58,207 nt of DNA, filler included, from Sphacelaria rigidula (GCA_964200075.2; 10 parts of 10 records of this genome joined end to end with filler, not necessarily neighbours in it); one strand, 5' to 3'. Positions 423 through 46,647 are shown, numbered from the whole stretch's first letter. Numbers and translations are program-made. The notes: generated from the letters alone by a model not told the origin.

Positions 423-3400
423 CTCTGTTACCACGCGATCGTACTCGGTCAGGGCCCAGTGCAGGTCGTGATAATAGCTCTTGAATTTCACCTCCTGTTG
501 TGTTGCACAGCGGCGGGATGTACGAAGAACATGGATAAGGTATCCACGCATGCACACGGTACCATGATCCTTCAGCACACTGCGATCGAAAACGAGGGGT
601 ATATCCGAGGAGATTACAGGCCACGCGCTGCCGTTCCCCTGTCAGTGCTTCATTTAGTACATGCGCAGCCACCCTCGACGTGCGGCCAATCAATCTATTG
701 TAGGGGCGGCTCTTCACGCAGCAGTAAATGAAGCCACGCGCTTTCATCTCAGCGCGTTACTCGCTTTGGGCGGTCGGGTTTCTTTACCGTGTTCAAAAGC
801 ATTCAAGCCTGTTATGAAGGGTTCGCTACGGCCGGCAGCTTGTGTTGAAAAGTGTTGATTATCTTACGCGCCTGGAACAGAGCAATCTTGGCTGACTCCG
901 GGATCTCAATGCCCATGCGGTCAAGTATCTTCGCCTCTCGAATAAGCTGCAGAATTTCTTGGTCGAAGTTGACGTACAGCTTTCCGTCATCCGGATGTCG
1001 AATGATCAGCGTCGCCTGTGGTTCAAGATCCGCGATGGCGCACACCGCAGCAAGGGATCAGCCAGGCATTATGACATCCCCCCAATCAAGTACGTCGCGA
1101 TGTGTGTGTATCCTTGATTGGAGTCAAAAACACGTGGAGAGCGTTTCTATTCACAAGTAAGTATACCATACAGAAGAAGTGAAGATTCAAATACTATTAT
1201 TTGATATTAACAAGCTCAATCGCACTCTGTGTATATCACTTATTCAAATAAAAACATTCGTTGGAGACCGTTTTGTACTCACATCCCATACAGAAGAAGG
1301 TAACACTTGAAAAAAGCCAGCCGATATAAAACAAGCTCAAACGAACTTTAGAAGCAGTCGAATGCTTCGATTCTACGCACGACCAGGTTACCACGATGAA
1401 CTGAGGGGAAATAGATGAAACGACGCGAGAATTTCATCTTAGCAATGCTACGGCAGGGGCTGCACTTTTTTTTAGCGAAAACGTATCTCGAGGCTGCTCG
1501 GGGTGTGTGGACGGATCATTCTGAGAATTGGCATCATTTGTTTTTGAAAAAGACTGAAAATGATGCCGATTCACGAAAAGGCCCCTGCGTGCAAACACCA
1601 TGTTTCGAGGAGGCCCGTCTCCGGAGATTTGGGTTGCACAGTAAGCCCTGCATATTTCGGCTCCTACAAAAAAGAGACCCAGAAACAAAACGTGCAACCC
1701 CTACCGTAGCATTGTTCATGTCGGTGTCCCTGGGAACGAATCGACAACGACGTAACGACGACGGAAACTCGTCGTTCGAGTGCCAAGTACATATCATACT
1801 TCTAACTGCCCGCCGTTAATGCTGACTGTTCACGGATCCCCGATGGCACACCAACCTGCAACCCAGCCTTCGCTTGTTCGATGCTTTGCACCCATGCCTG
1901 GTACCAAAGATATTCGAAGGCAACCAGCGTTCGCGCGACCTTGTTGTAGATCTGCCGAGGAACACGAGAGGGTTTAGAGGAAATCGACGGGGTTTATCGA
2001 TACAGTTTTCCTTGCACGCATACAACTGTCGCAGTAAAAATTAGTGCTTCAATATGACCAAAGTGCAGCGAATACCCTGACATCACCCTGTAGCATGACA
2101 TTTTATAGTTTATCAGGGTGAACACAGAAGATGTGCTGTCTTCCTCCATCACTCTTTCAATCCAGTGTGCCCATGATTCCTCGCCACAAAGGCGTTCAGG
2201 TTAAAACATAATATAGGGATCCGCACCGCAGCGAAACAAGGAAAGAACGTTGAAACGTATCCGATCCCATCCATTCGGCGCTCGCCACACAACGTCAGGA
2301 ATTCCACATTGCCATTGTTTTGAGTTTAAATCAATCAGGAAACATGTAGACCTAACCCTGTGGTCATATTTGATCGCCTCTGCAACAGAAACGATCCAAA
2401 AGGCTCGCGTGCCAAATTAAATTCTTTCGCGTGGGACCGGAAAGTTCAGTATTCAGCGTATCCGGTAAACGCCTCCAAAGGTCTTGTCCGAAAGTAGAAA
2501 CCTCACTAGGAAGTCTATGTGCGCGCATTTTCTACCATAGCAAGCTTTCGCACCCTGGATAACGACGAGGAAGTACATTGACAATAATTCTACCGTGTAC
2601 AGTATCAACTATTACCAGCTATTGCCAACAGGAAATAGATTTCATACTGTACGCAGTACATTTTTGACAATGTAATCTACTGCCATTGTCCGCAGTGTGC
2701 AAGATTTTGCCTCGTACGGCGTTAGTGAATCGAAGCGTTTACGAGGGTATTACCTACTGAAAGCTGTTTGACATCAGCGTAGTGAGTGAGCCGACATGAA
2801 AGTTCACTATATTCTGACCTTGATGATTCTCTTGGCATCCTTCCCCGCCAGGACGTTCTGGTTGCTCTCAAACTGCTTCATGGGCTCTTCGATTCGTTTG
2901 AGGAGATGCCTGCGTTTTGTCATGTTTTTGTAACCGGATTTCGACCCATGCAGGAGGACATGGGACAAAGGCAGCCAAAAAGAAACCGCTAAGGAGTTAA
3001 AGATACAGCACCAAAGATTATTTTGCAGAGATACAGCACCTGTACCGTTGTTCAGGACCAATCGTGAGTTTCCGGAGTTGCAACGTGGCAAATAATTTTC
3101 GCGTCTCCCTCGAAGTATCCTTTCCTCATTGCCGTCTACAAATATCTTCCGCCTCCGGTAAGAAAACAATGCCCTTCCCGCTTCCTGAGGGAAAAGGAGG
3201 TAGGCTATTCCAAGGATGGAATGACGGAGTTGTAATCTCTCCAATTTCACCCCGCAACCCTCTATTCACCTCACGGTTTACCTAAACACGTGCACGACTC
3301 TTTACCTTGACCACGTGATATTACCCGCCACGGGAGGCAAGTTACGGGAAATTGGAGGGTCGTGTTTCTGTTTTTCGTAGAGCTGTTGCACCTGCTCCAA

Positions 3401-5115
3401 CTCCATGCCGTAGTTCTGAAATATAAAAACACAAGAAGCACGAAGGGACGAGAAAAAAAAGAAGTAAAAAAAAGAAACGGGAAAAGAGCAACAAAACAAA
3501 CAATTCACTAACTAACTCTCTGAGAAGGGGGAAGACTTGTACGAAGCTCAAGGTCGTATATATTACGATGCCGCGCCACCTCTGGCAGTGTTTCGCGTTT
3601 GATCCCCCGGACCGCGAAGCACTGCAGTCACTTTGACTCTGCTCATAACATGGTTAAGTGATTCCATTCCCGTGTGCAAATCCTCCTGCAATAAAGATCC
3701 CCAACTAGTGTACGGTTAGAGGGCTAAGAAAATGTCGAACGTTTTAAGGCTCCTTTTAAGACGGGGTCCTGGAAACGGGATTTTATAAGAAAAAGAACTG
3801 AGATCGAAATTATACGTGAATATTGCAACCTGGTACCGAGTAGTCAAACGTATTAATCTGAACACTTCAGAGGTACGTTTAACCCTGTACTTGTTGCAAC
3901 ATTCTCAACAATTCCAACCTCTGCTCGTTCTCGTAGAAAAGTCTCGTTCTCATTTTACAGCATCCCGTGTTCTTTACACGTGTCCGGTAGTGCAAGAGCC
4001 TGGTCGACCCTGGTTAATCCTTCATCGGGCAACGTCCAAGTGATCGACGCTGGCTATGGGTAGCTATAGAGCACCGCGTTTCCGAGAAATTTCCTTGAAA
4101 ATTCGTCTTTCTTGGCTATCCCCGTAGCTGATGCTTCACGCTATTTCTCCGCGACCCTTGCATGCGTGGCGCAGTGGTCTTACCTGAAAGATGATGTTGA
4201 GCTTAGAATCCAGATCAGACTTAAGGCTCTCTCTCTGCAGGATGGATTGGAACTTATGCAAGAGCTTGAGGGAATGCTCGATGGAGGTGATATTCTCGAA
4301 GCTCTGGTTAATGAAGGCCTGTGAATACCCGATGCATACGGAAGAGTGGGATACGCCGAACAGGAGCTTGGTTGTCGCGGATGCAAAGTCACTTCCCCGC
4401 AGCACATTGTGGGACGTCACAAACGGGACAAAGAGCGACACGACACCTTGTTTTGCGAGCGACGAGGAATGCGCACTGCTGCAGCATATCAATGAACCCG
4501 GATCACGATTCTCCACAAGAATCGGTCCTTCAATTATCCCGCAACAGCGTACAAAAGCCGGACGGTTTTCATCATTATTTACTCCTACTATGTTATTGTT
4601 ATTATTAGTACTAGTATAGTTCGTATTACGGTTGTTAGGGTTCATATTACGATTATTGTTGTTGCTGTTTTACTGCCATCATTGCGGTTTGTCTTGTTAT
4701 TTCTATGCTTATTACCACTAATATCATCATTTTTATTGTCATCATCATTATCATCCCTATCACTGTTATCACCATTATTATCATCCTCATCCCCATTATA
4801 ATTATTGATACCCCTCACGATACCACCTGTAGAATATACACCCATGAGATGGTTTGTCATCTTCCACCAGAGTGACCCGATCTCTTGTTCTGAAGTGCAC
4901 AAAAGCGGCGTGAATTCGGGAAGTTCATGGGAAGGGATACGGGCACACACAGCACTTGCCTGTAAACTGCACTCGAGGTCCGAAATCTTGACGTTAAACT
5001 CAACATAGTCACGGTCGAACTTGTTGTTATGATATGCCAACAGGTCGTGCCGCTTCAGCCTGAAGTCTTTCACGATCGAATGAAATTGATCAATCAATCC
5101 TTCCATGCCCTCCAG
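423..5115 (-). CDS. Axonemal dynein heavy chain, internal N-terminal (DHC_N1/tail) fragment, outer-arm gamma/DNAH5-DNAH8-like; 7 exons, partial at both ends
   Basis: Minus-strand exons 5115-4960, 4318-4184, 3415-3306, 2909-2819, 1951-1856, 1015-872 and 494-423 splice in frame (804 nt, 268 codons), each with an AG acceptor. The product reads LEGMEGLIDQF...FDRDYVEFN...AFINQSFENI...RNLPPVAGNITWSRHLLKRIEEPM...IYNKVARTLVAFEYLWYQAW...LQATLIIRHP...LYVNFDQEILQLIREAK...EVKFKSYY, which matches remembered DNAH5/8-type motifs. Confidence 0.93.
4570..4812. repeat. Degenerate (ATT/ATC)n trinucleotide low-complexity tract in a dynein intron
   Basis: Runs such as attatcatcatcattatcatcc. They produce the spurious N/D-rich ORF extensions in the ORF track. 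Confidence 0.75.
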
Positions 5116-5564
5116 CTGAGAAAGGCACGAGCCAACAGCACGAGGCGTGCAGTCAACGGTGCACGACGCAAGGAGTGGAGAAAATACAAACGAAGCAGGG
5201 GGCGCTGGGGATTCCGCGCCTTAGACTCTGCATTTGAGCGAGCATATGCAAACGTGCTGGTAAAAGTCGACGTAAGCAGCCGCGACAAAGTAATTTTCAA
5301 TTTACTCAAGTCAGACCAATACTAACGCACACTTGAAATATTCAACAGCGCATGAGTGGTGCCGCGACATGGCCCCCCGACCCACAAAAGTGGCTGATTT
5401 GAGGAGGCAAAATCTACATGCGAATCATAATTACAACAAGCAAGCACACCGAGCAGCTACGAACTCCCACGTCTCGTATTTTTTTCACCAGTGTCGCCCA
5501 TATGAGGCGCTTCATGCAGTGTGAAACCAAGTGTGACAGGTTTGGGGCTGGTTTGGGGGAGGGG

Positions 5565-5731
5565 GTAGAGGGGAGGGGGGGGGGGGGCGTACTCATTTGT
5601 TGCTCGCCTTAGTCGTATGACCATTGACCACGCATTCCTTTCGAGACGAAGCAAGGGGGGAGGGGGGGGGGGGCGTACTCATCTGGTGCTCGCCTTAGTC
5701 GTATGACCATTGACAAGGGATCCCTTTGCAG
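5565..5731 (-). mobile_element. Two tandem 3'-end copies of the poly(C)-tailed non-LTR retroelement
   Basis: G-run followed by CGTACTCAT(T/C)TG(T/G)TGCTCGCCTTAGTCGTATGACCATTGAC occurs twice (about 5588 and 5674). The second copy is cut by the contig end. Confidence 0.8.
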
Positions 5732-5869: not shown

Positions 5870-5903
<34 letters not shown>

Positions 5904-10192: not shown

Positions 10193-11239
10193 ACGCCATG
10201 TTTCAACATAGGGTCGCCTTGACCCTCATCCTAAAGCGTACATAACCCTTGACAGTAAAATGTAGCAAATCCTGGATGACTTTTGAGCTCATTGAAAATG
10301 AAGACTTTGAAGGGGATGGAGGGGACAGCTTAAGCATATACAGATGTGATTTTGTGAGCTTCGCATTTAATTTGAAAAGGGTACGCATGTAAGCATGACT
10401 ACACAGAAGCTAGTCGATAATGGGAGGTTAGCTTGGTACAGTAATGACCTTACGTGTGCTCTTACTTTCGATTAGCCAGGGGCTAACGCCGTGATCAAAG
10501 CGTGCCATTCCGTAAGGGCGACTGATGCGAAAGCGTTAGGCAGGCGTTAATGTTCGACGTTCCATTTCATTGCAGCTTCGAAGCTTGCTGCTGTAGACCT
10601 GCCATTACCCTTGCATGCTGTTCCTAGAAATACCAATCAAGAGATTCACAGTTTTTTCGGTCAACGCAATAGTCCCAACGACACGATGATGGACGTAGTA
10701 CAGTAGTCTAAGAAGAGGGCTGGGGTGGAAGCGAGCAAGGTGTGGTGGAGTATAACGCGAAAAAAGGAAAGAAGGAAGAACAACTACCGAAAAACGTATT
10801 AGAGCCAAGACACCAAATAAGAATAATTTGAGTGGAGACGCAGAATGTAACTAGCCCCATATCCTGCTACCACTAGTGCGGTATTCCCGGTACCAATAGA
10901 CATTCCCGACTTCATGAATTTAATCTTGGTCAAGAGGGTTTCGATTGGATGGCCAGAATAGAAGGCAGGGTTGGAGGGGGGTTTTACAAGAAGTGCAAGC
11001 GCCTGGTGCAGACTTGCCCAACAGTGTGTATGTGTGGTATGATGTACAGTATACAATAGTAGGCGATGAAAATATCGTGCTCCTGTAAGAAGTGATAGCG
11101 CCTGGTGGAGACGTGTCCTACCGTGTGTACGTGTTCTAAGATGAACAATGATAGGCAAATGGAAATATTGTGTTCCAGAGCAGTGTATATATGGCATACC
11201 ATCACGATTACCGCGTGTAACGAGCTGAATTGCCGAGGC

Positions 11240-11330
11240 GGAGGGAGGCGGCGTCGTACTCATTTGTTGCGTGCCTCCTGAATCATTTGACCATTAACAA
11301 CACACCCCTATCGAGACAGAGCACCGTTCG
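11240..11330 (-). mobile_element. Diverged 3'-end copy of the poly(C)-tailed LINE; another stub lies at 11501-11562
   Basis: GTACTCATTTGTTGCGTGCC...TTTGACCATT...CGAGACAGAGCACCGTTC preceded by a G-rich tract. Confidence 0.65.
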
Positions 11331-11729
11331 CCGGGGCGGAAGGGGGAACCTGAAAACCATTTGTTCGCTTGATGTTAACGTTGACCTTGTCTTTCGAGGC
11401 ATGTACAAGTATCGTAGTATAGTAGTACGCAAGGAGGGAGTTAAGCGGATAGTTCGCGAATGTTGAAGTTTCATAGTCGAAAAATACGGAGCCATGTACG
11501 GCGGGAGGGGGAGGAGGGGGGGGGTGTACTCATGATCATGCATGCCATAGTCATCAGACCATNNNNNNNNNNNNNNNNNNNNNNNNNNNNNNNNNNNNNN
11601 NNNNNNTTAATTAATTAANNNNNNNNNNNNNNNNNNNNNNNNNNNNNNNNNNNNNNNNNNNNGGGGCGAGGGATAGCACACACGCAGGGGCTGAGGTTGT
11701 GTGAGACGGGCATGGGACCAGCAACGCGT

Positions 11730-12290
11730 GGGGGGGGGGGGGGGGGGGGGGGGGGGAGGAGGAGTATTCATTGTTTTGCTTGCCTTAGTCGTTTGACCAT
11801 TGACCACGCCGACAGAGCACCGTTCCTACTCCTACAAGAGGCACCTCCAGCATTTGGGCGCCATCACGCTTGCTCCTTCCATGTGTTACACAAAAACCGT
11901 GTACATATCTCATCTCCTTCCTGTTTCACCGTCTGTGGCCACCATCTATCCCCTAGTATAGCGATCGCTTTCTCGCTACTGTCCTGCGAACCAAACAATT
12001 TCATGCCACCTTCGCTGACTTTCCGTTTTTCTCCCTCTAGCACGCCCCGTTCCTCCTTGCATAGCTCACATTCTCCCACATGAGTTCCACTCTCTACCGC
12101 TTTGCCGCAGGGGGAGTTCTGTGCAACTACTTCCTCCCCCACTCCGCTACTGTGCTCCGTCTCGAAAGGGATGCGTGGTCAATGGTCACACGACTAAGGC
12201 AAGCAACAAATGAGTACGCCCCCCCCCCCCCCCACTCCGCTACTGATACACCTCTTCCTTCTTTGGTGGCGTGGTCCAACTAGTACGACT
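11730..12290 (-). mobile_element. LINE 3' fragment: degenerate ORF2 C-terminus, 3' UTR and poly(C) tail
   Basis: Minus-strand translation ...PCGKAVESGTHVGECELCKEERGVLE...AILGDRWWPQ...FLCNTW is followed by GCGTGGTCAATGGTCAAACGACTAAGGCAAGC and a C-run. It is collinear with the copy at 34390-34886. Confidence 0.8.
12153..12228 (+). mobile_element. 76-nt 5'-truncated poly(C)-tailed retroposon insertion with a 17-bp TSD
   Basis: TGCTCCGTCTCGAAAGGGATGCGTGGTC...CAAATGAGTACG-Cn is flanked by direct repeats CCCCCACTCCGCTACTG at 12136-12152 and 12229-12245. Confidence 0.88.
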
Positions 12291-13242: not shown

Positions 13243-13540
13243 GAACAATGTTTTCGTGAGATTGAGAGTAGAGGATACGATTGGGACTGAGAAGCGGTCA
13301 ATGAGTGAAGTAGTCGTTTCAGTTCCGAAATACCCCTCCGCGAGGCCCGATATGCTTTCTGTAGTAGCATGCCTCTGACGCCATTGATATCCCTGAGTAA
13401 GATATCGATGTGTAACTATAAGCACGTGCCAGTGATGGAGGCAAAGAAAAGCACGCACGGAATAAAAAACCGGGCAAGTTAAATCGAATAACCAAAGCCA
13501 CTCTCAATCAGCGCTCTACAATGCTCTCAATCTCACGTTG
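13243..13540. mobile_element. MITE, same family as 47762-48066 (opposite orientation)
   Basis: Ends AACAATGTTTTCGTGAGATTGAGAGTAG ... CTCTCAATCTCACG. The internal sequence is the reverse complement of the contig 9 copy. Confidence 0.7.
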
Positions 13541-14430: not shown

Positions 14431-14824
14431 ATATACCTGCGTCGGGTTACATACAGGCCAATATCAGGTGATATTGAACACTTTGTTGCCCTTACCAGGT
14501 GATCTACAGCGGAATATATGGCTATATTACGTGATGCATGTGAGATATCGGCTTATATCGGTGCAATGGGTAATTGAACAACTTAAAACTAAAAGCAAAT
14601 TAAATGATATATAAGAAGTAATAGATGGGTAATAACTATTAATGAATTACATACATATTAAGGTTGGGTTGGGGTGTGGATTGTTTTTTTAACAAGGAGA
14701 AGGCATAATCATAATCATAATAACAAAAATGATAACAACAATAATAATAAAGATATAATATATTATAATCATTGAATCAATGTTTGAGGATGGAATGGGA
14801 ATGTTTGTTGGGATTTGTTTTTAT

Positions 14825-15115
14825 CTCACACTTTGAACCCCTCCCCTTCCTCGGGATCAGTCCGTGGTCTCAAGGGATCAACCCATCTCTCCCCTGGTAC
14901 GTGCCTTTCATTTTTCATCTCGCGGATTGGATCAGCACTCCCGCACCGCGTCAACTCCCGTCACACAAACCCAGTCGACTACTTTGTTTACTGACGTTCT
15001 CACGCTTCCACGGTGGAAACCATACATTTCAAATAAAAACCCAATGCATCGGGAGTCGAACCCCCGTTCTCTCCACCCTAATGGCGACAGTCGGACCATT
15101 ACACCACTGGGGCGC
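14825..15115 (-). mobile_element. tRNA-derived SINE (family A)
   Basis: The minus-strand head has an A-box (TGGTGTAATGG) and a B-box (GGTTCGACTCC). The body is shared with 35074-35365 and 46648-46822. Confidence 0.75.
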
Positions 15116-16269
15116 GGCGGCTGGGAACTGAATTCTACTTTTTGGACAAGATGGAAACAATATGACATACAGTGCGCGGTATCGTTGACGCCTGCCTATT
15201 ACCTACACGAAGGGAACACGACGTCTGTCAGCGTTTCCTCATTGAGGTGAAGTTTTGTCTCAACCAATGGCAGGTACTGATGTGACACGGTGATAGGTAC
15301 ATAGAGGCGAGAGTATCACTGGAAAACGCGACATATCTTATACATGCGGGGATATATGACTAATACACACACAAAAAAATATATATCATATAATTGATTG
15401 ATCAATTAATGATTGTTTGGGGATAGTTGATAGATGGTTGGATGGTTGGTTAGATTGTATTTTTTGGACAAGGCAAATACAATAATGCAACACACCACAT
15501 GATTATGTTCCAAATAGATTAAATATCAGGTTATTTTATCATCATATAGATGCCAGGTGATGAACGTCACATAGGCCAGAAATCAGGTGATATCTAGTAC
15601 ATATAGTGTATATACCCCTATATATATCATATACCCCAAATATATCACATTCATATCGATATATGGAAAAACGTGGGGTATATGAACTTGACTACTGGAG
15701 GACTGTTACGATTATCAAGCAGCTCATAGACTATGATCTTGTTTTGAAAAAGTAGAGGTGAAGAAGACAAAAAACAAAAGTAACGCAATAAAAGGGGGGA
15801 AAGCCATTCAGAGGGAAAAACTGCGGGAGAATTGACCCTCAAGCAACTTCAACACTACAGAGTGAGGTAGTTTTACCGAGATCGTTGATTCACCAAGATC
15901 CAACGGGTCCGGGTGCATGCGGAGGAATCGTTCTGATTTTATCACGAGAACATATGATGGCGGATGACAATAATATGCAGCGGAAAGTTCATCTCTGGAT
16001 CTTGCAATATTGCATGCTAGCTTTTGTACACGATTTTATCGGCCCTTCAGTCATGGTTGAAAACATTCACCCGTGTTGTCTTTCCCGCCATACATATTGC
16101 GCGCCGGGAGACTTTTGCATGTCCCATGTTACTGCAGTACAGCAAGTCTTCGTGCAACCAGCACATGACATGGTACGAACACTACTGCGAGGAACGAAAC
16201 TGCCCAAGCGTCGATGCCCGCAACAAATGTTTGGGTCAGGAGAGCGCAGCAGCTACTCTAATATGCATA

Positions 16270-17784: not shown

Positions 17785-18388
17785 AAAGTGTCTGAGATCT
17801 CCACACCAAGGTATGTATACTGGTCTACGATCGGCAGTTTCTCTTCTCCCCACTTCCACTTGAACTCTGCCGGATTACTCTCATCTTTATTACAGACGAG
17901 TACCGCGCATTTGTTGACGTTCGCTGTCACTCTCCATTCCCTAGTGTATTCGAGCGCCTTACCTATCTCTGTCTGTAATGCTTCTGGTGTTTCTGAAACC
18001 CTCACAAAATCACCCGCGAACATCAATCCTGATACCATATCTTCACCGACCTTGACTCCTTGCTTTGCTGCTTCTATTGCTATTATCAAAGCATTGATAG
18101 ATACCTTGAACAAATTGGGTGATAACGTACATCCTTGTGCAGCTCCTTGTAAGATATCGAACATTTCGATATTTCCCCGTCTAGCACCATGGCACTTTTG
18201 GCACATTCCGTCATCTTCTCCACCATTCTCCACATCTTCCCTCTGATCCCAGCTTTCCACAACTGTTTCCACAACCCGTTTCTCCATACTGTGTCATAAG
18301 CCTTTTACACGTCCAGAAATAAACTGTACCTTATCCGCCCAGTGTCTTCCCTACCCTGAATAGTCTTACTTAGTGTGTACACATGGGC
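17785..18388 (-). mobile_element. LINE reverse transcriptase fragment (pseudogene)
   Basis: RT motifs FLDV*KAYDTVWRNGL, QGCTLSPNLF, LMFAGDFV (degenerate FADD), ANVNKCAVL and YTYLGVEI, with frameshifts and a stop. Confidence 0.9.
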
Positions 18389-18832
18389 TACGCAACTACG
18401 GTTTGGTCTAAATCCTGCTTGTGCCTCGCTGATTGTGTCTTCAAGATTGCAGGTCTGTTCAGAGTTGGTCGGGTTCGGATGTGAGCTTGTATATTGGTAA
18501 AAGATGGCGAGATAGATCGGCTAGGACCGATATAGCTCGCCCACCCTCCAGCACTATCAACTGCTCCTCTATTGCGCTCCAGCAAAAGAAGTCTAACTAT
18601 CGGTGAGACGCATTGGGTTGAATTGGACTGATTGCGTGGGTACTGGAGTTAGAACCAAGATAATCAAGAGAGAAGTGAAGAACCTATTCGCGTGAACCTC
18701 GTCTGATATTTGGATGCTGAGCAGGTCACACTATATCTACAAGTTGTAGCAGCCTGACGGTTGTACACTTGTCTGCCAAGCTTGTGCCTTGGGTTGCAAG
18801 CTGTGTCCTTGCATTATACTGCCGCTTGCTCT

Positions 18833-23049: not shown

Positions 23050-23374
23050 AAATGACCGCGTCTGTGAATGGTGATGGCAGACTTCATCTGTGAAATTTCA
23101 ACCTCTTCTTCAAGCTGAGGTCAGAACTCCTAAGTTGGGCAACGCATTCAACTGTTGTTTGTGACACCTCTGTGTTCATGTGAACAGGTACACTGGGTGA
23201 ACATGCACACGTACGGATATAATTNNNNNNNNNNNNNNNNNNNNNNNNNNNNNNNNNNNNNNNNNNNNTTAATTAATTAANNNNNNNNNNNNNNNNNNNN
23301 NNNNNNNNNNNNNNNNNNNNNNNNCACCTGTGGGGGGGGGGGGGGGCGTACTCAACAAATGAGTACGCCCCGCC

Positions 23375-24545
23375 CCACAGGTATTTTGGTAGGTTCGCCT
23401 CGTTCAAGAGGCAACGGTTCATGTTCAGAATAGTTCTTCCGTCGCGTTCTGACATACCATTTTTCTGTGGAGTATGGGGTGTCGTGAATTTTTGGAGAAT
23501 TCTTGTAGTTTTGCAGTATCGTCGAAAGTAATCTGCGATATATTCCCCCCCACCCGATCCGACCGCAGGCGGTATACTCGAAGTCCTAAAGGAATTGCAA
23601 CGTCTTGAACATACTTGCACAGGGTAGAAATTGCCTCACTTTTTGCCTTGATGGAGTATACAACTTTCAGTCGACTACAGTGGTCGGTGAATTCAGCCAT
23701 ATACCTATATCCTCCTAATGCAGTTGGTGTGATGGTTCCTGACAGATCGGTAGTTACCAGTTGTAGACGCTCAGTCACTGATGAAAAGTCCGCGGTCTTC
23801 GGATGGTTCTGCTGGGTGCTTTTATTCAGCATACAGGTGTCACAGAAAGAAAGTGCACCTGTAAACTTGACACCTGTCGCAGGTGTATTCATTATACGAC
23901 GCATAACTGGTTCAGTTGGATGGCCCAGGCGTTTATGCCATATTTCTGCACTTACAGTGGTTGAAAGAGCCACGGGGTCGTCCTCGGTGGCCATGGCTGT
24001 AAATGATGTCCCTGGGCCCATACATTCTCCAGAAACCACCTCAGCAGTAAACGTTGACCCGGAGTTGGTGCGGAAGGTGTTCTGATCCCGAATAATCTTA
24101 ATGTTGAGGAAGTGTACCGTACCGGTGTTGTCGGTGCGAATGGGAATTTTGAAACTTCCAAGATCCACGTGAAAGTTGACCGAAAATATGTTCGATACTC
24201 CTTTCAATAATGCCTCGACGGGTGAAAAATGATGTTTACCGAGGGCTGAAATAATAATGACCGGAAGGCGGACGGAGTGTTGATTACCCTGTTGATCACA
24301 GACGATGGAGTGAAGTACTCCCTTTCCTGTTCTGCTGAGGAGATGACGACCTGCTGTCAGAATTCTCATGGGAGGATCGAGTTTCACATAATTAAACATC
24401 TCCTCTTCAATATTAGGAAGTAGCTGATTGTCGAGGTAGTAATGACTGGCCCCGGAGTCGCATACCATCTTGAATGATATCGAAACCGGTAGCTGAGTGT
24501 TGTCTTTGTCTGCAGGATCAGCAAAAAAGGTATACCCTATGCCGC
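23375..24545 (-). mobile_element. Ty1/Copia pol fragment: protease, GAG-pre-integrase and integrase core (frameshifted, truncated by contig end)
   Basis: VCDSGASHYY (protease), WHKRLGHP...CDTC (HHCC), TDLSG, FTDHCSR and LRSD, then in another frame GGEY...TPQKNGMSERDGRT...LPKYLWG. The PR-IN order is Copia-type. Confidence 0.93.
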
Positions 24546-25865
24546 TTGGTGGCGCGCATGTGTCAATGTCGAAGATGAAGGTCTGCTGGTGTCTTGAGCT
24601 TGGTCACTGGAAGGAAGAGTAGTTGAAGAGGTGCTTGACGCAGGATCCATGGTGGCGGTATTCGCTTGATTCGGATGATTGATGGTGTTGTTTGCGCTGC
24701 AGCCGGAGTTGTTGTTGTTGTTGCGTGTGTTGTTGCGACGGCGATGAGTGTTATTTTTATAGTAGTTGTTGTTCCTGCTGCTACTCGTCGGCGCACTATC
24801 GTTAATGATTTGATTGCATTCAGAGTCGTCGTGCTTATCTGTACGATGCAGCGTGCACCATTTCACAGTCCTGCTCCTGCTGTTAGGTTGTCGTTTAGAG
24901 CGACAGTCTCGGCTATGGTGTCCAGGCCGACCGCAGGAAAAACATTTCCCAGTGAATTTTGTAGGTGTTGCAGATGAATCGAGAGGTGAGGTTGCTGTCA
25001 TGGCAGAATCACGGCCGCGTACTCCCTTCGACAAAATTCCGCGTGCGACGCGATTTGAATACATATTCCTCATTGTTACTTCGATGTCGGAGATGCTAAA
25101 GTCTGGGTCACGCTCTGTATCATACATTATCCTGTCGTATTCACCTGTTAAGCCTTTCATCATGATGTCCGTAAGTCCATCATCTGAAATGGGCTCACCA
25201 ATGTACACCAGCTGATCACGTAGTTCATAGATCTTGGTCAAAAACACGTCAGAATCTTGGCCAGGTGACATCTTGATGTTATCTAGCTGACGCATAAAAA
25301 TACGCCGCCGTTGCTTCGAAGAGTCCTCGTATTTACCGACCAGTGTCTCCCATGCAATTTTTCCATCCGGTTTTGCGTGGCCCTTCGGCTCGAAGCGAGG
25401 AAGAAAACTGCCCGCTGGGCCTGTAGTTGTCAAGTATAATATATTGAACAATGGTTCGTCGCAGCGATCCCAATTATCAACTTCAGATCTGTTCACCACA
25501 ACTCCTACATGTGTGTCCTCCCGAGAGAAGTCCACTTCGCTGCCAGCCAGCGGGCCCCCAACTGGATCACTTGTTTCAGCTGCCTCTTCAGATGAAGACG
25601 GCGGGGTGCCTTGGGAGCGGGTGTGTGGCGAAGTTGATCTTGACCTGGGTCGTCCAACTGGAAGTGATTGGGCACCTTGAATGAGCTCCACGTCATCAAA
25701 AGTTTCCGCGGGACGTTTATCTCCATTCATCATGTCCGAAATCCCAGGATGTGTTAGGGAAATCATTGCGCGCGTGCTGCGCTTTCATTCGAGGAAACTT
25801 GTTCCATCAAATTTCCTGATGCTCCTGATGAGCTGTGCAACAGATGGCTCTCCTTGATTATTCAT
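24537..25865 (-). mobile_element. Ty1/Copia gag (degenerate: premature TGA near 25786, frameshift before pol)
   Basis: MNNQGEPS...FLE* is in frame with the 409-aa ORF. It carries a zinc knuckle CFSCGRPGHHSRDC and a WCTLHRTDKHDDSEC motif. Confidence 0.88.
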
Positions 25866-33185: not shown

Positions 33186-34389
33186 GGGTCCTCGGTAACT
33201 GGTCCTTCCGGACCGTTCCTACCTTGTCCCTGCTTGCGCTGGTTCTTCATATATGTGTGGCATCAATATCTGATATGTCACTGCAAAGAGGTATCTTCCA
33301 CATACATGGCTATCGTGGCTTGTGTACACAATACCCAGTGTTCAACTGTCAAAGTAAGTGACAGGAGCAATCAGTTCGACTTGTGAACCCAGCTCTGACA
33401 AGAGAGCTTGCAGACGCTGCATAGTGTTGGTTAAATACTTGCCTGTGCAATGAGAAGAAATGTTTTAAACTTGGCACTTCATCCGGCCGTTACTCACATC
33501 AAACACAATCAGTCTTTACTCCAAAGGAATTCTGATGACAAGCTGGTAGGCTTACGTGAGGTGGGTCGCTTTTGAGAGTAATAGCGTAGGGCTATTTCAC
33601 CATCTCGACAAAACTCTTGGATAGTAAAAAACTGTTCATCCAAACTGTTGATACCTTAGACCCTTCGTGCTCAGCTCTTCAATATTCTGACAATATATGC
33701 TGACTTTCTGCATACGAGCTACACAGTACATGAGCTTTTCATTATTCTACGATAGATATTCCACTTCTTCGGTTATTTCTACGATCTTTGTTCTAACAAT
33801 GAACCGTTACTGGTTTTACCGCTAATCTCGAGTATTTATGTTCGGGTCCAAGGGGCAGTCGAAAAAAGAATTCGGGACACGTAGGCCCCAAGATCGAAAA
33901 TTCGAGTTTTTGAGGGGGGGGGGGGGGGTACACCAAGCCGTGTGTCCCCTGCTTTTTTGCCGAAGCGTTGGCGGATGCGGTCAGCTGCCGTGTACAGTAG
34001 AGATCCTTTTATTTTATATATGATATATGATATATGATATTTTATATATGATGCATTATATATGATATATTATATCTCATATACTATATTTCATAGACCA
34101 ACCGATGTTCCCTTATGGAATACGCCGCCTCAACGTCTCATGCACATTATTCATACCTGGTGGGCATGTTGTGCGTGCGGTGTGCCGGCCGGTGGGGTGA
34201 TGGATACTATCATTCAAGGATTGGACGAATTAATTATTCATCTGAATATTGCTTGATCTTGGTGTGAGTGAGTCATACCGTACGTTTCTCTCTCTTTCGA
34301 GCAATCGGGCCTCACAAATCGTGGATTTGGTGATTCAAATCGGCGATGATTCGTCCAAATCTTCGAGCGATCCTACAGTATAGGTGGGA

Positions 34390-34886
34390 GTGGGGAGGGG
34401 GGGAGGGGGGCGTACTCATTTGTTGCTTGCCTTAGTCGTTTGACCATTGACCACGCATCCCTTTCGAGACGGAGCACCGTTCCTGCTCCTAATAGAGACA
34501 CCCCCAATATTCCGGCGCTCATTACGTTTCTTCCATAGCTCATTACGTCTCTTCCATACATTACACAAAAACCTTTGACATGTGTCCCCCCCGTCCTGTT
34601 TCGCCGTCTCTGGCCACTATCTATCTCCTAGTATAACCATCGTTTTCTCCCTACTGCCTTGTGCATCAAACGATTTCATGCCATCTCCGTTCACGTCCCG
34701 CACCCCCCCCCCTGCACGTCCCGTTCCTCCTTGTATAGCTCACATTCTGCCACTATAAATATGACTTCTGCTCTCTATTCCTTTGCCACAGAGGCAATTC
34801 TGTCCATCGCCTTCCTCCTCCTTTCGACGACTGGTATATCTCTTTCTTCTTTCTGGCAGGTCTAGGTCCCCCACCCGGAATCGCAG
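34390..34886 (-). mobile_element. LINE 3' fragment with zinc-knuckle-like C-terminus, 3' UTR and C-rich tail
   Basis: LRFRVGDLDLPERRKRYTS...CLCGKGIESRSHI, then ...GACTAAGGCAAGCAACAAATGAGTACG-CCCCCCTCCCCCC. Confidence 0.85.
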
Positions 34887-38772: not shown

Positions 38773-40084
38773 CTGTGAACAGTGCATGCATGACCGAACA
38801 AATGTGGGTACAAGGGACTTATACGTGTGTGCTCAGGTCGGGCTGCGGAGGGTTGGTTAGAACGCGGACAGAATGTGGCCAGATTGCTCGGCAGTGCTTG
38901 CGTCGAACCTGCGCGACAATCGCTTGGAAACGTATGTATGCTGCCGGTTTTGATCATCACTTCAACCAGTAAATCATGCGAACCAACATTTCTGCTCCAG
39001 GTGGCAGGCGAGTGTTTCTCGTTCCAAGCAACCGGTACGAATAATATGGACGCACGTATGCCCAATGGCACGACAGAATATCAATTACCGTTATACACCG
39101 TGCACGCACAGCAGAAGGGATGAAAGGGATACTGCAGTCTACCGCGGACGACAAAATACGGTGAAATCGTTCCAAAGTAGCAACACCTGGCAATGCTGCA
39201 CTGATCTGGCAGTGTGTTGTACCACTACTGATGAACGATGAGAATACGGGCCCCTCTCCGTGCTATTGTACATTGACTTCATCCTTCTATGTTTTACTGG
39301 CGCATAACCGTAAACATCGTGTAACGTCCCATCATCATGCGCTTTTTGTTGTATTACTGCATTGCCTATATCTATCTGGACATTTCCTTTTGTTTCGTGG
39401 ACGAGTTGGATGAGCTGACAGCTTCTTTTGGTATCGCCATAATATCTGTCGTGATGAGGTGCAATGTGCTGTGGCCATTCGATCGTAATGCATTAAGGCA
39501 TAGTACAGAGGGACACAGGTGGGAAAAGGCTGGCTGAAATATCGGTTACTTATCGACCTAGAACTGCATGTAGTTCCAAGAGTCGTGGTACCGTACTAGG
39601 GGGGGGGGGGGAGGGAGGGGGAGGTTGTTTGTTCCATTTCTCCCACGAAATTCCACTTTCTTCGAATTGCCGTTGGAAGCATCGACGATGAGTTTTGGTA
39701 CGTGTTTGTTACCGATAAATAGCACACAGTTAGATATGTGAATCGCTCACAAAACATATAGGAAATTTCCCCCCAAAAGTGTCCTGGCTCTTCCTGATGG
39801 ATAAATCGAGCCAGTCAGAAACAAAGGGTCCGTCCGGTCGGTTCCATGAGAACCCCAGAAGGCGTTCTGCGCACGCTACAAGCACTACCGCAGGTGCAGT
39901 GCTCATGGTGGAACTGATTATTCATTTTTCAAGTGAAGATTATTTGACGCAGATGACCCATCCTCGGGGTGACTATAGACAAACCCGAATAAAACAGAGG
40001 ACAATGGCAACAGTAGTACAATGCAGTACAAAAGCTGTGTGGTACAGTGCAGTATTGTCTCATCTCCCCCTCAACTGCAGAATA

Positions 40085-40717
40085 ATTGAAAAGGGTGAGG
40101 CACAGAGAGGCAGGTTGGACGTCATCCTCAGAGACCCGCACCTAGTCACTAGGATCAAGAGATGTATCGTGATGAACATGATCGTAACGAAGCTGGAATA
40201 TGCGGGAGGAGTATGGGAGGGGAATGTGAAGTTGGTGGAGAGGTTGGACACAGTACGGATGGCAGCAGCTAAGAAAATACTTGGATGCTCGAAAACAACG
40301 AGTAATACAGCTTTGAGAGCAGAGTTGGGAATGTACTCACTTGATCCAAACAGAGACATGAGAAAATTTCGATGGCAGTATAGCGTAAAGAACGTGCAGA
40401 GAAAGATATTGCCAGCTATAGTTGATAGGGCTGCATGGAAGAAGATTACGAAAGGGAAGGCTGGAATCAGGTGGGATAAAGAAGCCGACAAAATATGAAA
40501 GGAGGTAGGAAGAAACCGAGCCCAAATACTGTCCATAGCTGAATACGTAGGGCACAAGACAGAAATACGACATATGATAGAAATGAGGGAGAAAGGAGCG
40601 CTCAGACGCAAAGTAGACGAGGAAGAACACCTGGAGATACACGGGTGGTTGAGAGAGGGGATAGGGATGACAGCATATTTGCATGGCCCAATAAAAGAAA
40701 AAAAAAATATGAAATTG
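40085..40717 (+). mobile_element. LINE ORF2 fragment downstream of the RT domain (degenerate)
   Basis: KLEYAGGVW...AAKKILGCSKTTSNTALRAELGMYSL...W...YLHGP. The RAELG motif is typical of non-LTR ORF2. Confidence 0.85.
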
Positions 40718-40918: not shown

Positions 40919-42856
40919 CCAGAGTTGCTTAACCCTTGGACGGCGGTGCCCGTAGTCCATCTGGACCACGCGCGTACTTTTTCCAAGTGAATGTTGATGA
41001 CGATTCAGCAGGTGACCTACTCTCGCGGTCTGACGGTCGAGTCCTCCTGCGGAGTTTGGGGGGGGGAAATACTTTTGCTCTGTGTTACTCTTTTGTATCT
41101 TCCCTGCAAGAGAGAAATGCGACTTCAGCCCCATTATAGTGTTGAACCCCAAAATTTCAAATCGGCTCTTTAGAATGGAAATTCATTATCCAACCGCCAA
41201 GTTTTCTTCCCTGCGGCCGCTACGACAACTGAGATGCCCAAACGCCTCGGTTTTGGGGTGCTCGGTCGGGTACAGACTGACATTTTGGTGGTGAAGGTTC
41301 AATTTTGTATTCTGGCGAAAAAACATGAGAAGGAAAACGTTTACGGACACCATTTTTCGATTTTCCTCATTTTCGACCGCCTCGGGGGGAGGAGGGGGGG
41401 GGATATAACGTATTTCAATCAGTGAGACCCGTCGGGGAAAGCACTGTGTTGGGCTTCTCATTTCAGTGTACAACCTCGTTCTTCAGATTTGTCTGTTAAA
41501 GCACTTTTCGCACATTCTGTCTTTTTTTCACCATCCTTCCGATTCTCCCTCTGATCGCAGTTTCCCATAGCCCATTTCTTCATGCTGTATCATAGGCCTC
41601 CTGTACGTCTAGAAAGAAATAGTACGGTGCTACCTGCGCTTTCCTACCTTGAAGTATTTCACTGATGTATACACGTGGTCCACGCAGCTACGGCTTCGTC
41701 TCAGCGCTGCTTGCTCCTGGCGGAGATTTTTTTCCTCCTTGAGGCTTTTTTTTGGGGGGGGTGGGGGGGTGGGGGGACATGAAGGAGGCTCTACGATCAC
41801 AGCGAGTGATGATAAAAAAAAACAAGAGAAAGGGAAGGAGAGCGCAAAATATGAACCAATACAAAAAACTATGAAAAAAGAGTTGGTTGAATATTCTCAC
41901 GTATATGAGAACGGTGTGAAAACTAAATAGGAAGGACATGGAAATGGTACATCTTTATTAATGAGCGACGATCGAAGTACCTACAACAACTAACTGTACT
42001 ACCAGGGAGGAACCCGTACTTGCTGTAGCACGGGATGGATACCATGAGGTATCCCGCCGGTATTCGACGGCTTACCGGTCAGTGAAAACGCAAAACGAAA
42101 AAGATACAGTACCGAGTTTTCACCCGTACTAGGCAAGCGGTGACAACCTCTTTTACATTAATGGACAATCGAACACATCACATTTTGGCAAGAGAAACGT
42201 TTGTATCCAAAAGCAATCGGAGATTTGGGAGAGAAAATCAAACGTACTGGAGATTAAGAGCTCTAAGTCCCGCATTTCGGGGGCAGAAAATGGACTGAAG
42301 CGCCAATATTGGCTTTTTTCGGAGTGGATATATTGAACATGTATGTAAATATTCGTGGCGCAAGACGCGGAGTCAAGAGGCGTTAAGGCCCACTCACTTG
42401 CGCAGCTCCTCCGTGCCAAGTTCTTCCATTGGAGATCGGACTATCTGGCGTGACTGGCGCAGGCGCGGTTTCTTGTGACGAACTATGCGGTTCTCATACC
42501 TGAGTTTTGAATACATTTGGTACTATCAATCCGACGAGTTCCGTCGGCTTTGCTGATCCCGAGTCACGTTTTTGTTTTGCAATTCGTCGTGGGAACAAAT
42601 GAGAGCAACTCTCACGGGATCCTTTCAAAATCAGAACCCTGCCCGGTTTTGAACTAAATGTAAGACACAGTATCGTATGGGATAAGGTTGGTACGATTTT
42701 ACATAACATTGACCCCCACGATTTTAGATTTCGATCAACGAGCGGATTCCTGATCAAAATAACAGCTGATTATCGAAACTGATAATGAAGCTTTTCATTG
42801 AGGGTGAAAACCCGAAAAATTGAAATGTCTGTATTCACTCCAAATCTTCAAAACAT

Positions 42857-45605: not shown

Positions 45606-46647
45606 ACATGGCTCCATTCCTCTACCTACTGGTTGGTCTTGACAACTGCTACACGCCATGCAAATTTAGATCGCGATAACCCAAAAGTTAGGGTCCTAGG
45701 TCGGGTGACGTTTAGGATTACTTTATCTATACTTGTTGTGATGCGGGAGAAGGTATGGTTGCAACACTCTCGTCCGTTTTCACGGACTGCGAGTGCCTTA
45801 CCCACGGTGGTCTAATTGGAGGTGATAATGACTGCAGTTGTTATTTCTGGATATGACCAGCGGGTACGAGGAGTGTATATTTAAGTCGAAATATTGAGCG
45901 CCCATCTGATCATCTATTCGCCAGCTTTTTCGTTTTATAAGTACGTCGTTGGTCGTTATCGTGTTGGATGACGTGGAATGATGCAGTTGAACGATATGCT
46001 ATGTACGCGTTTGATACCTTGAAGTAGTCGCGTTGGATGGATCTGTGTGTGATGACTATTCAAGAGCGTGTGGTTTCTCGCAGAGTAGTTCGGGGAGCAA
46101 CATAGCCAACCCCCCGCCAATTACTCCCGTCTTCACCGTCGCTTTGGATTTCAACCGTACAGTAGAAACTAATCAAACACTTTTCCCAGCTTCTGACACC
46201 ACTGCTACACATCCAGCCTTCTTCTGCTTCGGTGACTGGGTCCTCAAGAACAAACTATTGAGTGCGTTCTTGAGTGAATATTTGATTGAATTCTGCACGA
46301 GATTGTGACGACATTCGGCAGGTTGTTGATCGTGATAATTGCACTAGAAAAATGATTATAAGCACTCAGGAGTTCACGACTCAGCAAACTCTCAAGCAAG
46401 AGCTGATCCTGGGCTAGGTACCACCTTACTGTGGTTTAAACGGTTGGGCGACACCTTTCCACTTCACATCTCGGTCATAAACTAGGGGACAGCAGGCTGG
46501 GTGTCTTCCCCCCCCCCCCCCCCCCCCCCCCCCCACCCCCCCACCCCNNNNNNNNNNNNNNNNNNNNNNNNNNNNNNNNNNNNNNNNNNNNTTAATTAAT
46601 TAANNNNNNNNNNNNNNNNNNNNNNNNNNNNNNNNNNNNNNNNNNNN

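Follow-up and report, generated by a model that had tools for sequence, protein, structure and literature searches.

The feature at 12136-12245 very probably arose when the 66-nt 3' module of a brown-algal LINE (one ORF, encoding both an APE endonuclease and a reverse transcriptase; the type catalogued as RTE-X in Ectocarpus) was recently inserted by target-primed reverse transcription (TPRT) into an older copy of this family that lies antisense to it. The module is followed by a run of C, at least 10 nt of which arrived with the insertion.

The window, i.e., the whole stretch of 58,207 nucleotides that was analysed, consists of ten sampled pieces of ~5.73 kb with N spacers between them. The DNA is eukaryotic, from a brown alga or a near relative of one; its best named protein relatives belong to Ectocarpus sp. 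CCAP 1310/34, and a public run that contains the stretch bears the label 'algae metagenome'. The insertion, its host and the other copies are listed in Table 1.

Table 1. Positions of the insertion, of the copy that it interrupts and of other copies of the LINE in the window (TSD, target-site duplication).
Feature	Position	Strand	Evidence or remarks
Left TSD copy CCCCCACTCCGCTACTG, opens with the pre-existing C5	12136-12152	+	Direct reading; repeat search; L004 4754-4770
66-nt LINE 3' terminal module: last 20 codons (..GAPSRKGCVVNGHTTKASNK), TGA at unit positions 59-61, then GTACG	12153-12218	+	Covariance model, 99.2 bits
C15 run: tail of at least 10 C from the insertion; last 5 C indistinguishable from the start of the right TSD copy	12219-12233	+	
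Right copy of the 17-bp TSD	12229-12245	+	Direct reading; L004 mapping; repeat search
Older, diverged, 5'-truncated LINE copy of the same family, host of the insert	11730-12278	-	76% to L004 4754-5165
3' end of another copy: frameshifted ORF2 C-terminus, unit 34411-34476, tail C6TC7TC4ACTCCCACC	34383-34886	-	5' end beyond the sampled piece
Head-to-tail dimer	5575-5731	-	Unit 5674-5731 (cut by piece end), tail C12TC6T 5654-5673, unit 5588-5653, tail C13 5575-5587, then C-rich flank
Short old copy: element 11255-11329 (begins 6 nt before the unit start), decayed tail ACGCCG 11249-11254	11232-11346	-	
Terminus of a related subfamily (...GGCATGCATGATCATGAGTACA), tail C9TCCTC5TCCC	11500-11562	-	Cut by piece end
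Palindrome at the first bases of a sampled piece	23325-23383	.	CACCTGT-G15-CGTACTCA / ACAAA / ACAAATGAGTACG (also read as TGAGTACG)-C4GC4-ACAGGT

Target-site duplication and the restored empty site

The direct reading of the strand gave CCCCCACTCCGCTACTG twice, as perfect 17-bp direct repeats. The 76 nt between them are composed of the 66-nt unit (TGCTCCGTCTCG...AAATGAGTACG) and 10 C, and the final 5 C of the uninterrupted 15-nt C-run are part of the right repeat. The first-pass annotation had described the insert as a 76-nt piece plus a 15-C run. Both figures are correct, but their sum is not, as 10 C are counted twice (66 + 10 = 76), a minor slip. An independent repeat search paired 12133-12152 with 12226-12245 (95% over 20 nt).

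For the empty-site check, the two flanks of the insert were aligned separately to L004, a public locus that carries an intact relative of the LINE. The left flank (12152-12051, minus strand) aligned to L004 4754-4858 and the right flank (12278-12229) to L004 4723-4770. Both 17-bp copies map to L004 4754-4770, which means that a single host sequence was duplicated and that the repeats are a true TSD. The restored empty site, ...RRKRCISSGVGEEVV..., agrees with ...RRKRYTSSREEEEV... of the intact relatives, and L004 has CCTCCTCCCGG at the homologous position, without a long C-run. As the empty site contains C5 and the filled site C15, at least 10 C were brought by the insert. The target duplicated by the insertion measures 12-17 bp and begins at the C5 run. 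Thus, the reading of the repeats and the alignment of the flanks bear out that perfect 17-bp repeats enclose the insert, that the duplication begins at a pre-existing C5 and that excision restores the older LINE, all of which had been proposed at the outset.

The insert had also been regarded as a 5'-truncated piece. It is indeed a piece of a LINE 3' end, but it is not a product of random truncation, being a recurrent, discrete 66-nt module made up of the last 20 codons, the stop and 5 nt.

The interrupted host copy retains the C-terminus of ORF2 at 11757-12135 and 12246-12278 and a decayed terminus ...AATGAATACTCCTCCT, and its tail is C27 (G27 on the plus strand, 11730-11756). No TSD was found for this copy.

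C-tailed termini and unit arrays

An 18-mer allowed up to two mismatches occurred five times in the window vs. 0 times expected from 100 shuffles. BLAST and the covariance model added 5674-5730, 11763-11819 and an inverted partner at 23347, and a related terminus (...CATGAGTACA followed by C9) lies at 11525-11562. In total, nine termini are found across five of the ten sampled pieces, which agrees with the at least eight occurrences in five contigs counted at first. The terminus was also said to lie directly 3' of ORF2 coding sequence in the sense orientation in two copies; this is the case at ~11750-12278 and 34398-34886 (minus strand) and, moreover, the terminus itself is coding.

The window itself contains only C-terminal and RT fragments of the LINE, and further fragments of this LINE group are located at 17793-18442, 40081-40692 and 41500-41739. 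The downstream unit of the dimer begins at the same TGCT.. base as the solitary insert. The C-rich 17-bp repeats at the flanks of the short old copy (11330-11346 vs. 11232-11248) are identical at 14 of 17 bases. The palindrome is near-perfect and consists of two inverted, extremely short C-tailed termini, whose flanks are inverted too; foldback or twin priming may have produced it, or it may be an assembly artefact of the contig end. Other elements of the window, at 23428-25784 and 4645-5220 (both minus strand), are Copia-type ORFs for gag (Retrotran_gag_2 E 7e-11), zinc knuckle and gag-pre-integrase (gag_pre-integrs E 5e-9), and the fragment of a dynein heavy chain N-terminus (DHC_N1 E 2.7e-9).

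The tails were compared at 13 termini, namely those of the window and of the four public loci L001-L004. A leading C-run of 4 to >20 nt was present at 11 of them, and at the other two, C made up 13 and 14 of the first 20 nt. None of the 13 was followed by an A-run (0-3 A in the first 20 nt), and the L1-like arrangement, a poly(A) tail after a polyadenylation signal, was seen at 0 of 13. The expectation of a C-run of variable length as the 3' end, never poly(A), was therefore confirmed, with 13 of 13 termini being C-rich.

The tails range from about 8 to >27 C in unrelated flanks. Both short copies with two recognisable ends, the insertion at 12136 and the old copy at 11232-11346, have C-rich duplications of ~17 bp that start in a C-run. 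A TSD was also sought for L004 and not found; the 5' end of L004 may lie off the contig. The copies start at different 5' positions and stop at the same end base, showing the variable TSDs, 5' truncation and common 3' end that are the hallmark of LINEs.

It should be added that C/G homopolymer runs of at least 12 nt outnumber A/T runs in the window 12 to 3. Seven of the 12 are unattached to the studied family (56-71, 5871-5902, 33914-33928, 39599-39611, 46508-46534, 49428-49461 and 49558-49575) and end other repeats, e.g., ...GGCTGGGTGTCTT+C27 and ...TTATCCCTGAT+C32. At 49428-49575, a T-rich repeat (...TTGCTTYGWTTGTTTTCTTGT) occurs twice in tandem, each copy with a long C-run behind it (C34 and C18) and with a 10-N gap between the two. 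The window is likely to hold further families of C-tailed retroposons, which are perhaps RTEX-N-like.

The surroundings of the unit were also followed in public data, in the contigs of four runs that belong to three studies; the figures are counts of contigs and not frequencies. Behind 12233, 7-15 more C were found before the consensus was lost (at least 794, at least 286, at least 675 and at least 59 contigs), which indicates that the C-run is terminal and variable and is no internal feature. Among the sequences listed ahead of the unit start, the commonest were LINE body and a long C-run: loose ends before 12152 were LINE body in at least 384, at least 316 and at least 362 contigs, and loose ends before 12153 were poly-C in at least 210 contigs of run X1 and at least 183 of X3. 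The C-run (12223-12232) was joined back to 12152/12153 in at least 32 contigs of X1, 11 of X3, 27 of X4 and one of X6. The last is one of four runs guessed to be RNA, which cover a small share of the stretch; in X6 the ratio of unit to unique depth resembles that of the DNA runs. Contigs that join the C-tail straight to the unit start show that head-to-tail unit-Cn-unit arrays are common. Judging by their sequences, such joints are what would be expected if new copies land in older C-tails.

These arrays could instead be a satellite amplified at the DNA level by unequal crossing-over or replication slippage. Their unit boundary is fixed, as in a satellite, and a non-autonomous partner of the Ectocarpus LINEs 'can be present in tandem' (PMC12477816). 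However, the unit at 12153-12218 is solitary, with the same 5' boundary and a perfect TSD, which shows that the monomer moves as a retrocopy, and the junctions between units contain 1-9 extra letters besides C-runs of variable length, like the 5' junctions that TPRT leaves. We therefore consider the satellite origin unlikely, although DNA-level amplification could still account for the growth of existing arrays.

In at least 11 contigs of three runs, the unit start was joined to an unrelated high-copy repeat that ends at 14894, a joint whose sequence hints at a non-autonomous partner. The discrete 5' end of the unit may be where an RNA module bound by protein has its edge, or where a short partner RNA begins. 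Ribosomes stacked at the stop codon were considered as another determinant of this end and rejected, since the footprint arithmetic does not fit 58 nt.

Two stretches of the window, 13244-13283 and 14735-15118, have a summed contig depth of ~5e5 vs. ~30-100 for unique bins. In public contigs there are joints between the unit's C-tail and 13244 and between 14894 and the unit start. The sequences suggest that these modules are composite non-autonomous elements that would use the LINE tail. A tRNA-like stretch containing a B-box lies near 15040-15116 (minus strand) and was not called by ARAGORN, which found 0 tRNA-like genes.

The LINE and its 66-nt terminal module

The locus L004 contains one intact ORF (1146-5147) with the domains Exo_endo_phos and RVT_1 (E 6.7e-32), whose end reads ...AAATGA GTACG C13. 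Exo_endo_phos occupies residues 170-392 in this ORF and in the protein P0003 (E 7.9e-11 and 3.4e-12, respectively), and Exo_endo_phos_2 was detected as well; RVT_1 was also found in the proteins P0001 and P0002 (E 2.8e-33 and 3.1e-31). In L004 the endonuclease is N-terminal to the RT in one ORF, which is the organisation of APE-type LINEs, and the initial assignment to non-LTR retroelements was correct.

L001 and L002 each have an open stretch of 671 codons that ends at the same TGA. In all three loci the 66-nt unit is read as part of the ORF (...GAPSRKGCVVNGQxTKASNK), which ends at the TGA within ...AAATGAGTACG. As this stop codon lies 5 nt before the tail, there is almost no 3' UTR (GTACG only). 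The combination of a single EN-RT ORF, seen in L004, with a simple-repeat tail other than poly(A), seen at the 13 termini, is a trait of RTE-X. Membership in RTE-X would rest on the published classification of the (C)n-tailed LINEs of Ectocarpus (best blastp RTEX-4_NV, RTEX-1_BF; PMC12477816).

Relatives of 33-40% protein identity keep the ...VNG... C-terminus behind a hypervariable linker. This C-terminus was present in 13 of the 120 relatives checked, including a named Ectocarpus protein that ends ...NGAPSRKGRVANGQMTTASNK. A pattern scan of metagenomes for further copies gave three loci only, and a scan of viral contigs gave none. Upstream of its ORF, at ~470-530, L004 has, in inverted orientation, a sequence similar to the 3' unit (reverse complement GGTGCTCCGTCTC...GGTCAATGGCAAGGCA...CATGAGTTC), which is either a separate inverted insertion or a part of the 5' region.

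In another eukaryote, a sister family has the same 3' module, which ends ...GTGGTCAATGGCGTAAGCGCTACGGCAGCAACATGAGTA with the TGA at the same place. Its contigs are Mb-size, LINE-rich and filed as a 'Nitrospirales bacterium' MAG (L006-L025). The tails of the sister family are T(ATT)n-like at 13 of 14 termini, with no tail at the remaining one, and its TSD candidates are 13-22 bp long, several of them beginning with ATT or TAT. More generally, the contigs L006-L038 (CBDBCZ01..., 0.09-2.8 Mb) and L004 (CBRFFM010000043.1) are filed as bacterial MAGs ('Nitrospirales bacterium', 'uncultured bacterium') and contain many APE/RT LINE copies. They are eukaryotic DNA, mis-binned or mislabelled in a prokaryote genome collection.

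The module at 12153-12218 is predicted to fold into two hairpins and a closing stem. The covariance model built from seven brown-alga units had 27 matches, 11 in brown algae and 16 in the sister family. On the model alignment 93.7% of 367 cells were paired vs. 33-52% with slid partners, and the two hairpins had 99% and 97% of their cells paired. Both sides had changed at four pairs; the two hairpins account for three of these, and the closing stem for one, which was seen in a single row. The covariation score was attained by 0 of 500 shuffles, for an alignment that is fitted to the model, comes from two families and contains about three independent compensatory pairs. The closing stem had no clear compensatory support, its first pair being unpaired in 10 of 21 rows, and the single-sequence folding energy of the unit was no better than that of shuffles (z -0.67; 48 of 200 fold as well). 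In this model-fitted alignment of two families, the two hairpins show what is known as a trait of stringent-type LINEs, i.e., conserved 3' stem-loops with compensatory changes. As judged from the compared sequences, the C-tailed family and its (ATT)n-tailed sister family show nucleotide-level conservation of their last 66 nt, with changes that preserve the hairpins.

A search of the window against Rfam at gathering thresholds returned 0 matches, so that the unit is not accounted for by any known ribozyme or RNA family. The pair ...AAAUGAG.../...CGAAAG... was considered as a hammerhead-like motif and rejected on inspection by eye, since its core bases do not fit.

Proposed priming by the C-tail and comparison with known systems

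We propose that the RT would recognise the structured 3' module ('stringent' recognition) and would start copying inside a templated C-run, where slippage would let the tail length drift. Judging from the starts of the TSDs, the nicked bottom strand would end in G's (5'-...GAGTGGGGG-3'OH), which would pair with the C-tail. Such G/C pairing would bias insertion to C/G runs and so give rise to C-rich TSDs and to nesting in older C-tails, from which unit-Cn-unit arrays would result. Pairing of the C-tail with a G-run at the nick, as a mirror image of L1, is plausible; a preference of the endonuclease for G/C runs would fit the sequences equally well.

Besides the satellite origin of the arrays discussed above, three other explanations concern the C-run itself. 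It might be added to the finished RNA by a nucleotidyl transferase that uses no template (polycytidylation) and then be copied, like the poly(A) of L1, but we know of no nuclear poly(C) polymerase. The tail length does vary (8 to >27) independently of the flank, and C-rich RNA tailing is described in the mitochondria of another alga (PMC5727444). Relatives with the same module, however, carry (ATT)n, and other RTE-X elements carry (CA)n or (CAA)n, which are best explained as templated repeats with slippage, and so polycytidylation appears quite improbable.

It is also highly improbable that the element has no tail of its own, i.e., that it ends ...GTACG and that its endonuclease inserts it 5' of pre-existing C-runs, which would then be target DNA. 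Microsatellite-specific LINEs are known, and the TSDs and flanks are C-rich here. In addition, RTEX-2_Ec32 of Ectocarpus is annotated with '(C)n termini/TSD' (PMC12477816). Against this, the empty site has only C5 and the filled site C15 after the unit, L004 is devoid of a long C-run at the homologous position, and 8-27 C stand behind the terminus in unrelated flanks.

That the C/G runs are sequencing or assembly artefacts, such as poly-G read ends, has a practically negligible probability: although 11730-11756 and 23332-23346 are near piece ends and the palindrome at 23325 looks like a foldback, most runs are internal, TSD-flanked and located at the same base of the element, they are found again in four assemblies or records that are independent of each other (L001-L004) as well as in the contigs of the public runs, and the published Ectocarpus annotation reports C-runs too (PMC12477816).

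A further reading may be offered, tentatively and with doubt. One 66-nt RNA module would serve both (ATT)n and (C)n families, and the tail would be set by pairing with the nicked target, not by RT recognition. The brown-algal RTE-X elements would then be G-run-primed, homing to C/G tracts and to each other's tails, and the module would be the minimal mobilisable unit, among the smallest retroposons known. If this reading of a shared module with a variable tail were true, the system would be a natural test bed for the choice of tail identity in target-primed reverse transcription.

C homopolymer tails are unusual among LINEs and make a clean natural counterpart to the A-tail/T-run priming of L1. 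The system could be used to separate tail/target pairing from endonuclease specificity in the choice of insertion sites, and a C-tailed LINE could help explain the abundant C/G homopolymers in this genome.

A C-tailed LINE was absent from the matches listed in a keyword search of the literature before the Ectocarpus library (PMC12477816); an L1 paper among these matches, in the part available, mentions internal poly-C tracts in 3' UTRs only, and nothing to the point was found in PMC3627910. This library, a curated TE collection of Ectocarpus sp. 7 (Genome Biol 2025, supplementary table MOESM3), describes RTEX-1a_Ec32 (5867 bp) as 'single EN-RT ORF; (C)n 3'' with a 'C-rich' TSD, RTEX-2_Ec32 as quoted above, RTEX-N1 (607 bp) as tandem-forming with '60 bp 3' end 83% RTEX-1/RTEX-2', and RTEX-N2 (188 bp). 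In descriptive terms, these entries already cover the (C)n tail and the C-rich TSDs as well as the 60-bp end held in common and the tandem partners; they also correct the first-pass annotation, to which no published description was known. The main text mentions the shared 3' end and gives RTE-X as 3.41% of the genome; in its parts at hand it contains no discussion of the C-tail, of a stop codon inside the terminus, of RNA structure or of mechanism, and the main text lacks the term 'C-rich'. New here are the stop codon inside the terminus, which leaves a 5-nt 3' UTR, the module as a conserved two-hairpin structure (in a model-fitted alignment of two families), the tail switch between sister families and the discreteness of the 66-nt unit.

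The family of the window has in common with the LINEs RTEX-1/2_Ec32 and their non-autonomous partners RTEX-N1/N2_Ec32 its occurrence in a brown alga, the single EN-RT ORF, the (C)n tail, the C-rich TSD, a high copy number and a 3' end of ~60 bp that is common to short, tandem-forming elements (PMC12477816). The named Ectocarpus protein ends in the same peptide. The best named Ectocarpus protein has 71% identity over 68% of the query, and for this reason the window may hold a sister subfamily or stem from another species. The family is likely to be RTEX-1/2_Ec32, the match being one to the published description and not to a consensus sequence.

Simple-repeat tails other than A are the rule in RTE-X and other stringent LINEs (PMC3747384). 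All six green-algal RTEX families end in non-A repeats, which are di- to heptanucleotide repeats such as (CA)n, (CAA)n and (CCAT)n (PMC3747384, Table 3). The eel elements UnaL2 and UnaSINE1 (PMC1636434, PMC3747384) resemble the window family in having a conserved 3' stem-loop module with a short simple-repeat tail and perhaps in sharing this module with non-autonomous partners; the tail repeats of UnaL2 have been linked to template slippage at the start of reverse transcription (PMC3747384). UnaL2, however, belongs to the L2 clade and has a (TGTAA)n tail and a module in the 3' UTR, whereas the window family has a C homopolymer and a module that is the end of the ORF.

In ORF architecture the sister family agrees with the window family, and both have the ...GTGGTCAATGG...GCAACA..TGAGTA module with the TGA at the same place. 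Its T(ATT)n tails and the di- to heptanucleotide repeats of green-algal RTEX differ from the C homopolymer of the window family.

In L1, a T-run at the nick anneals to the poly(A) tail, the TSDs are 7-20 bp long with first bases that match the tail, and 5' truncation is frequent. L1 has two ORFs, its A-tail is added by polyadenylation and its recognition is 'relaxed'. The window element shares with L1 a homopolymer tail, variable TSDs that match the tail and frequent 5' truncation, and would share the logic of tail/target annealing. It differs from L1 in its C-tail, its specific 3' module and its single ORF, and is no member of the L1 kind.
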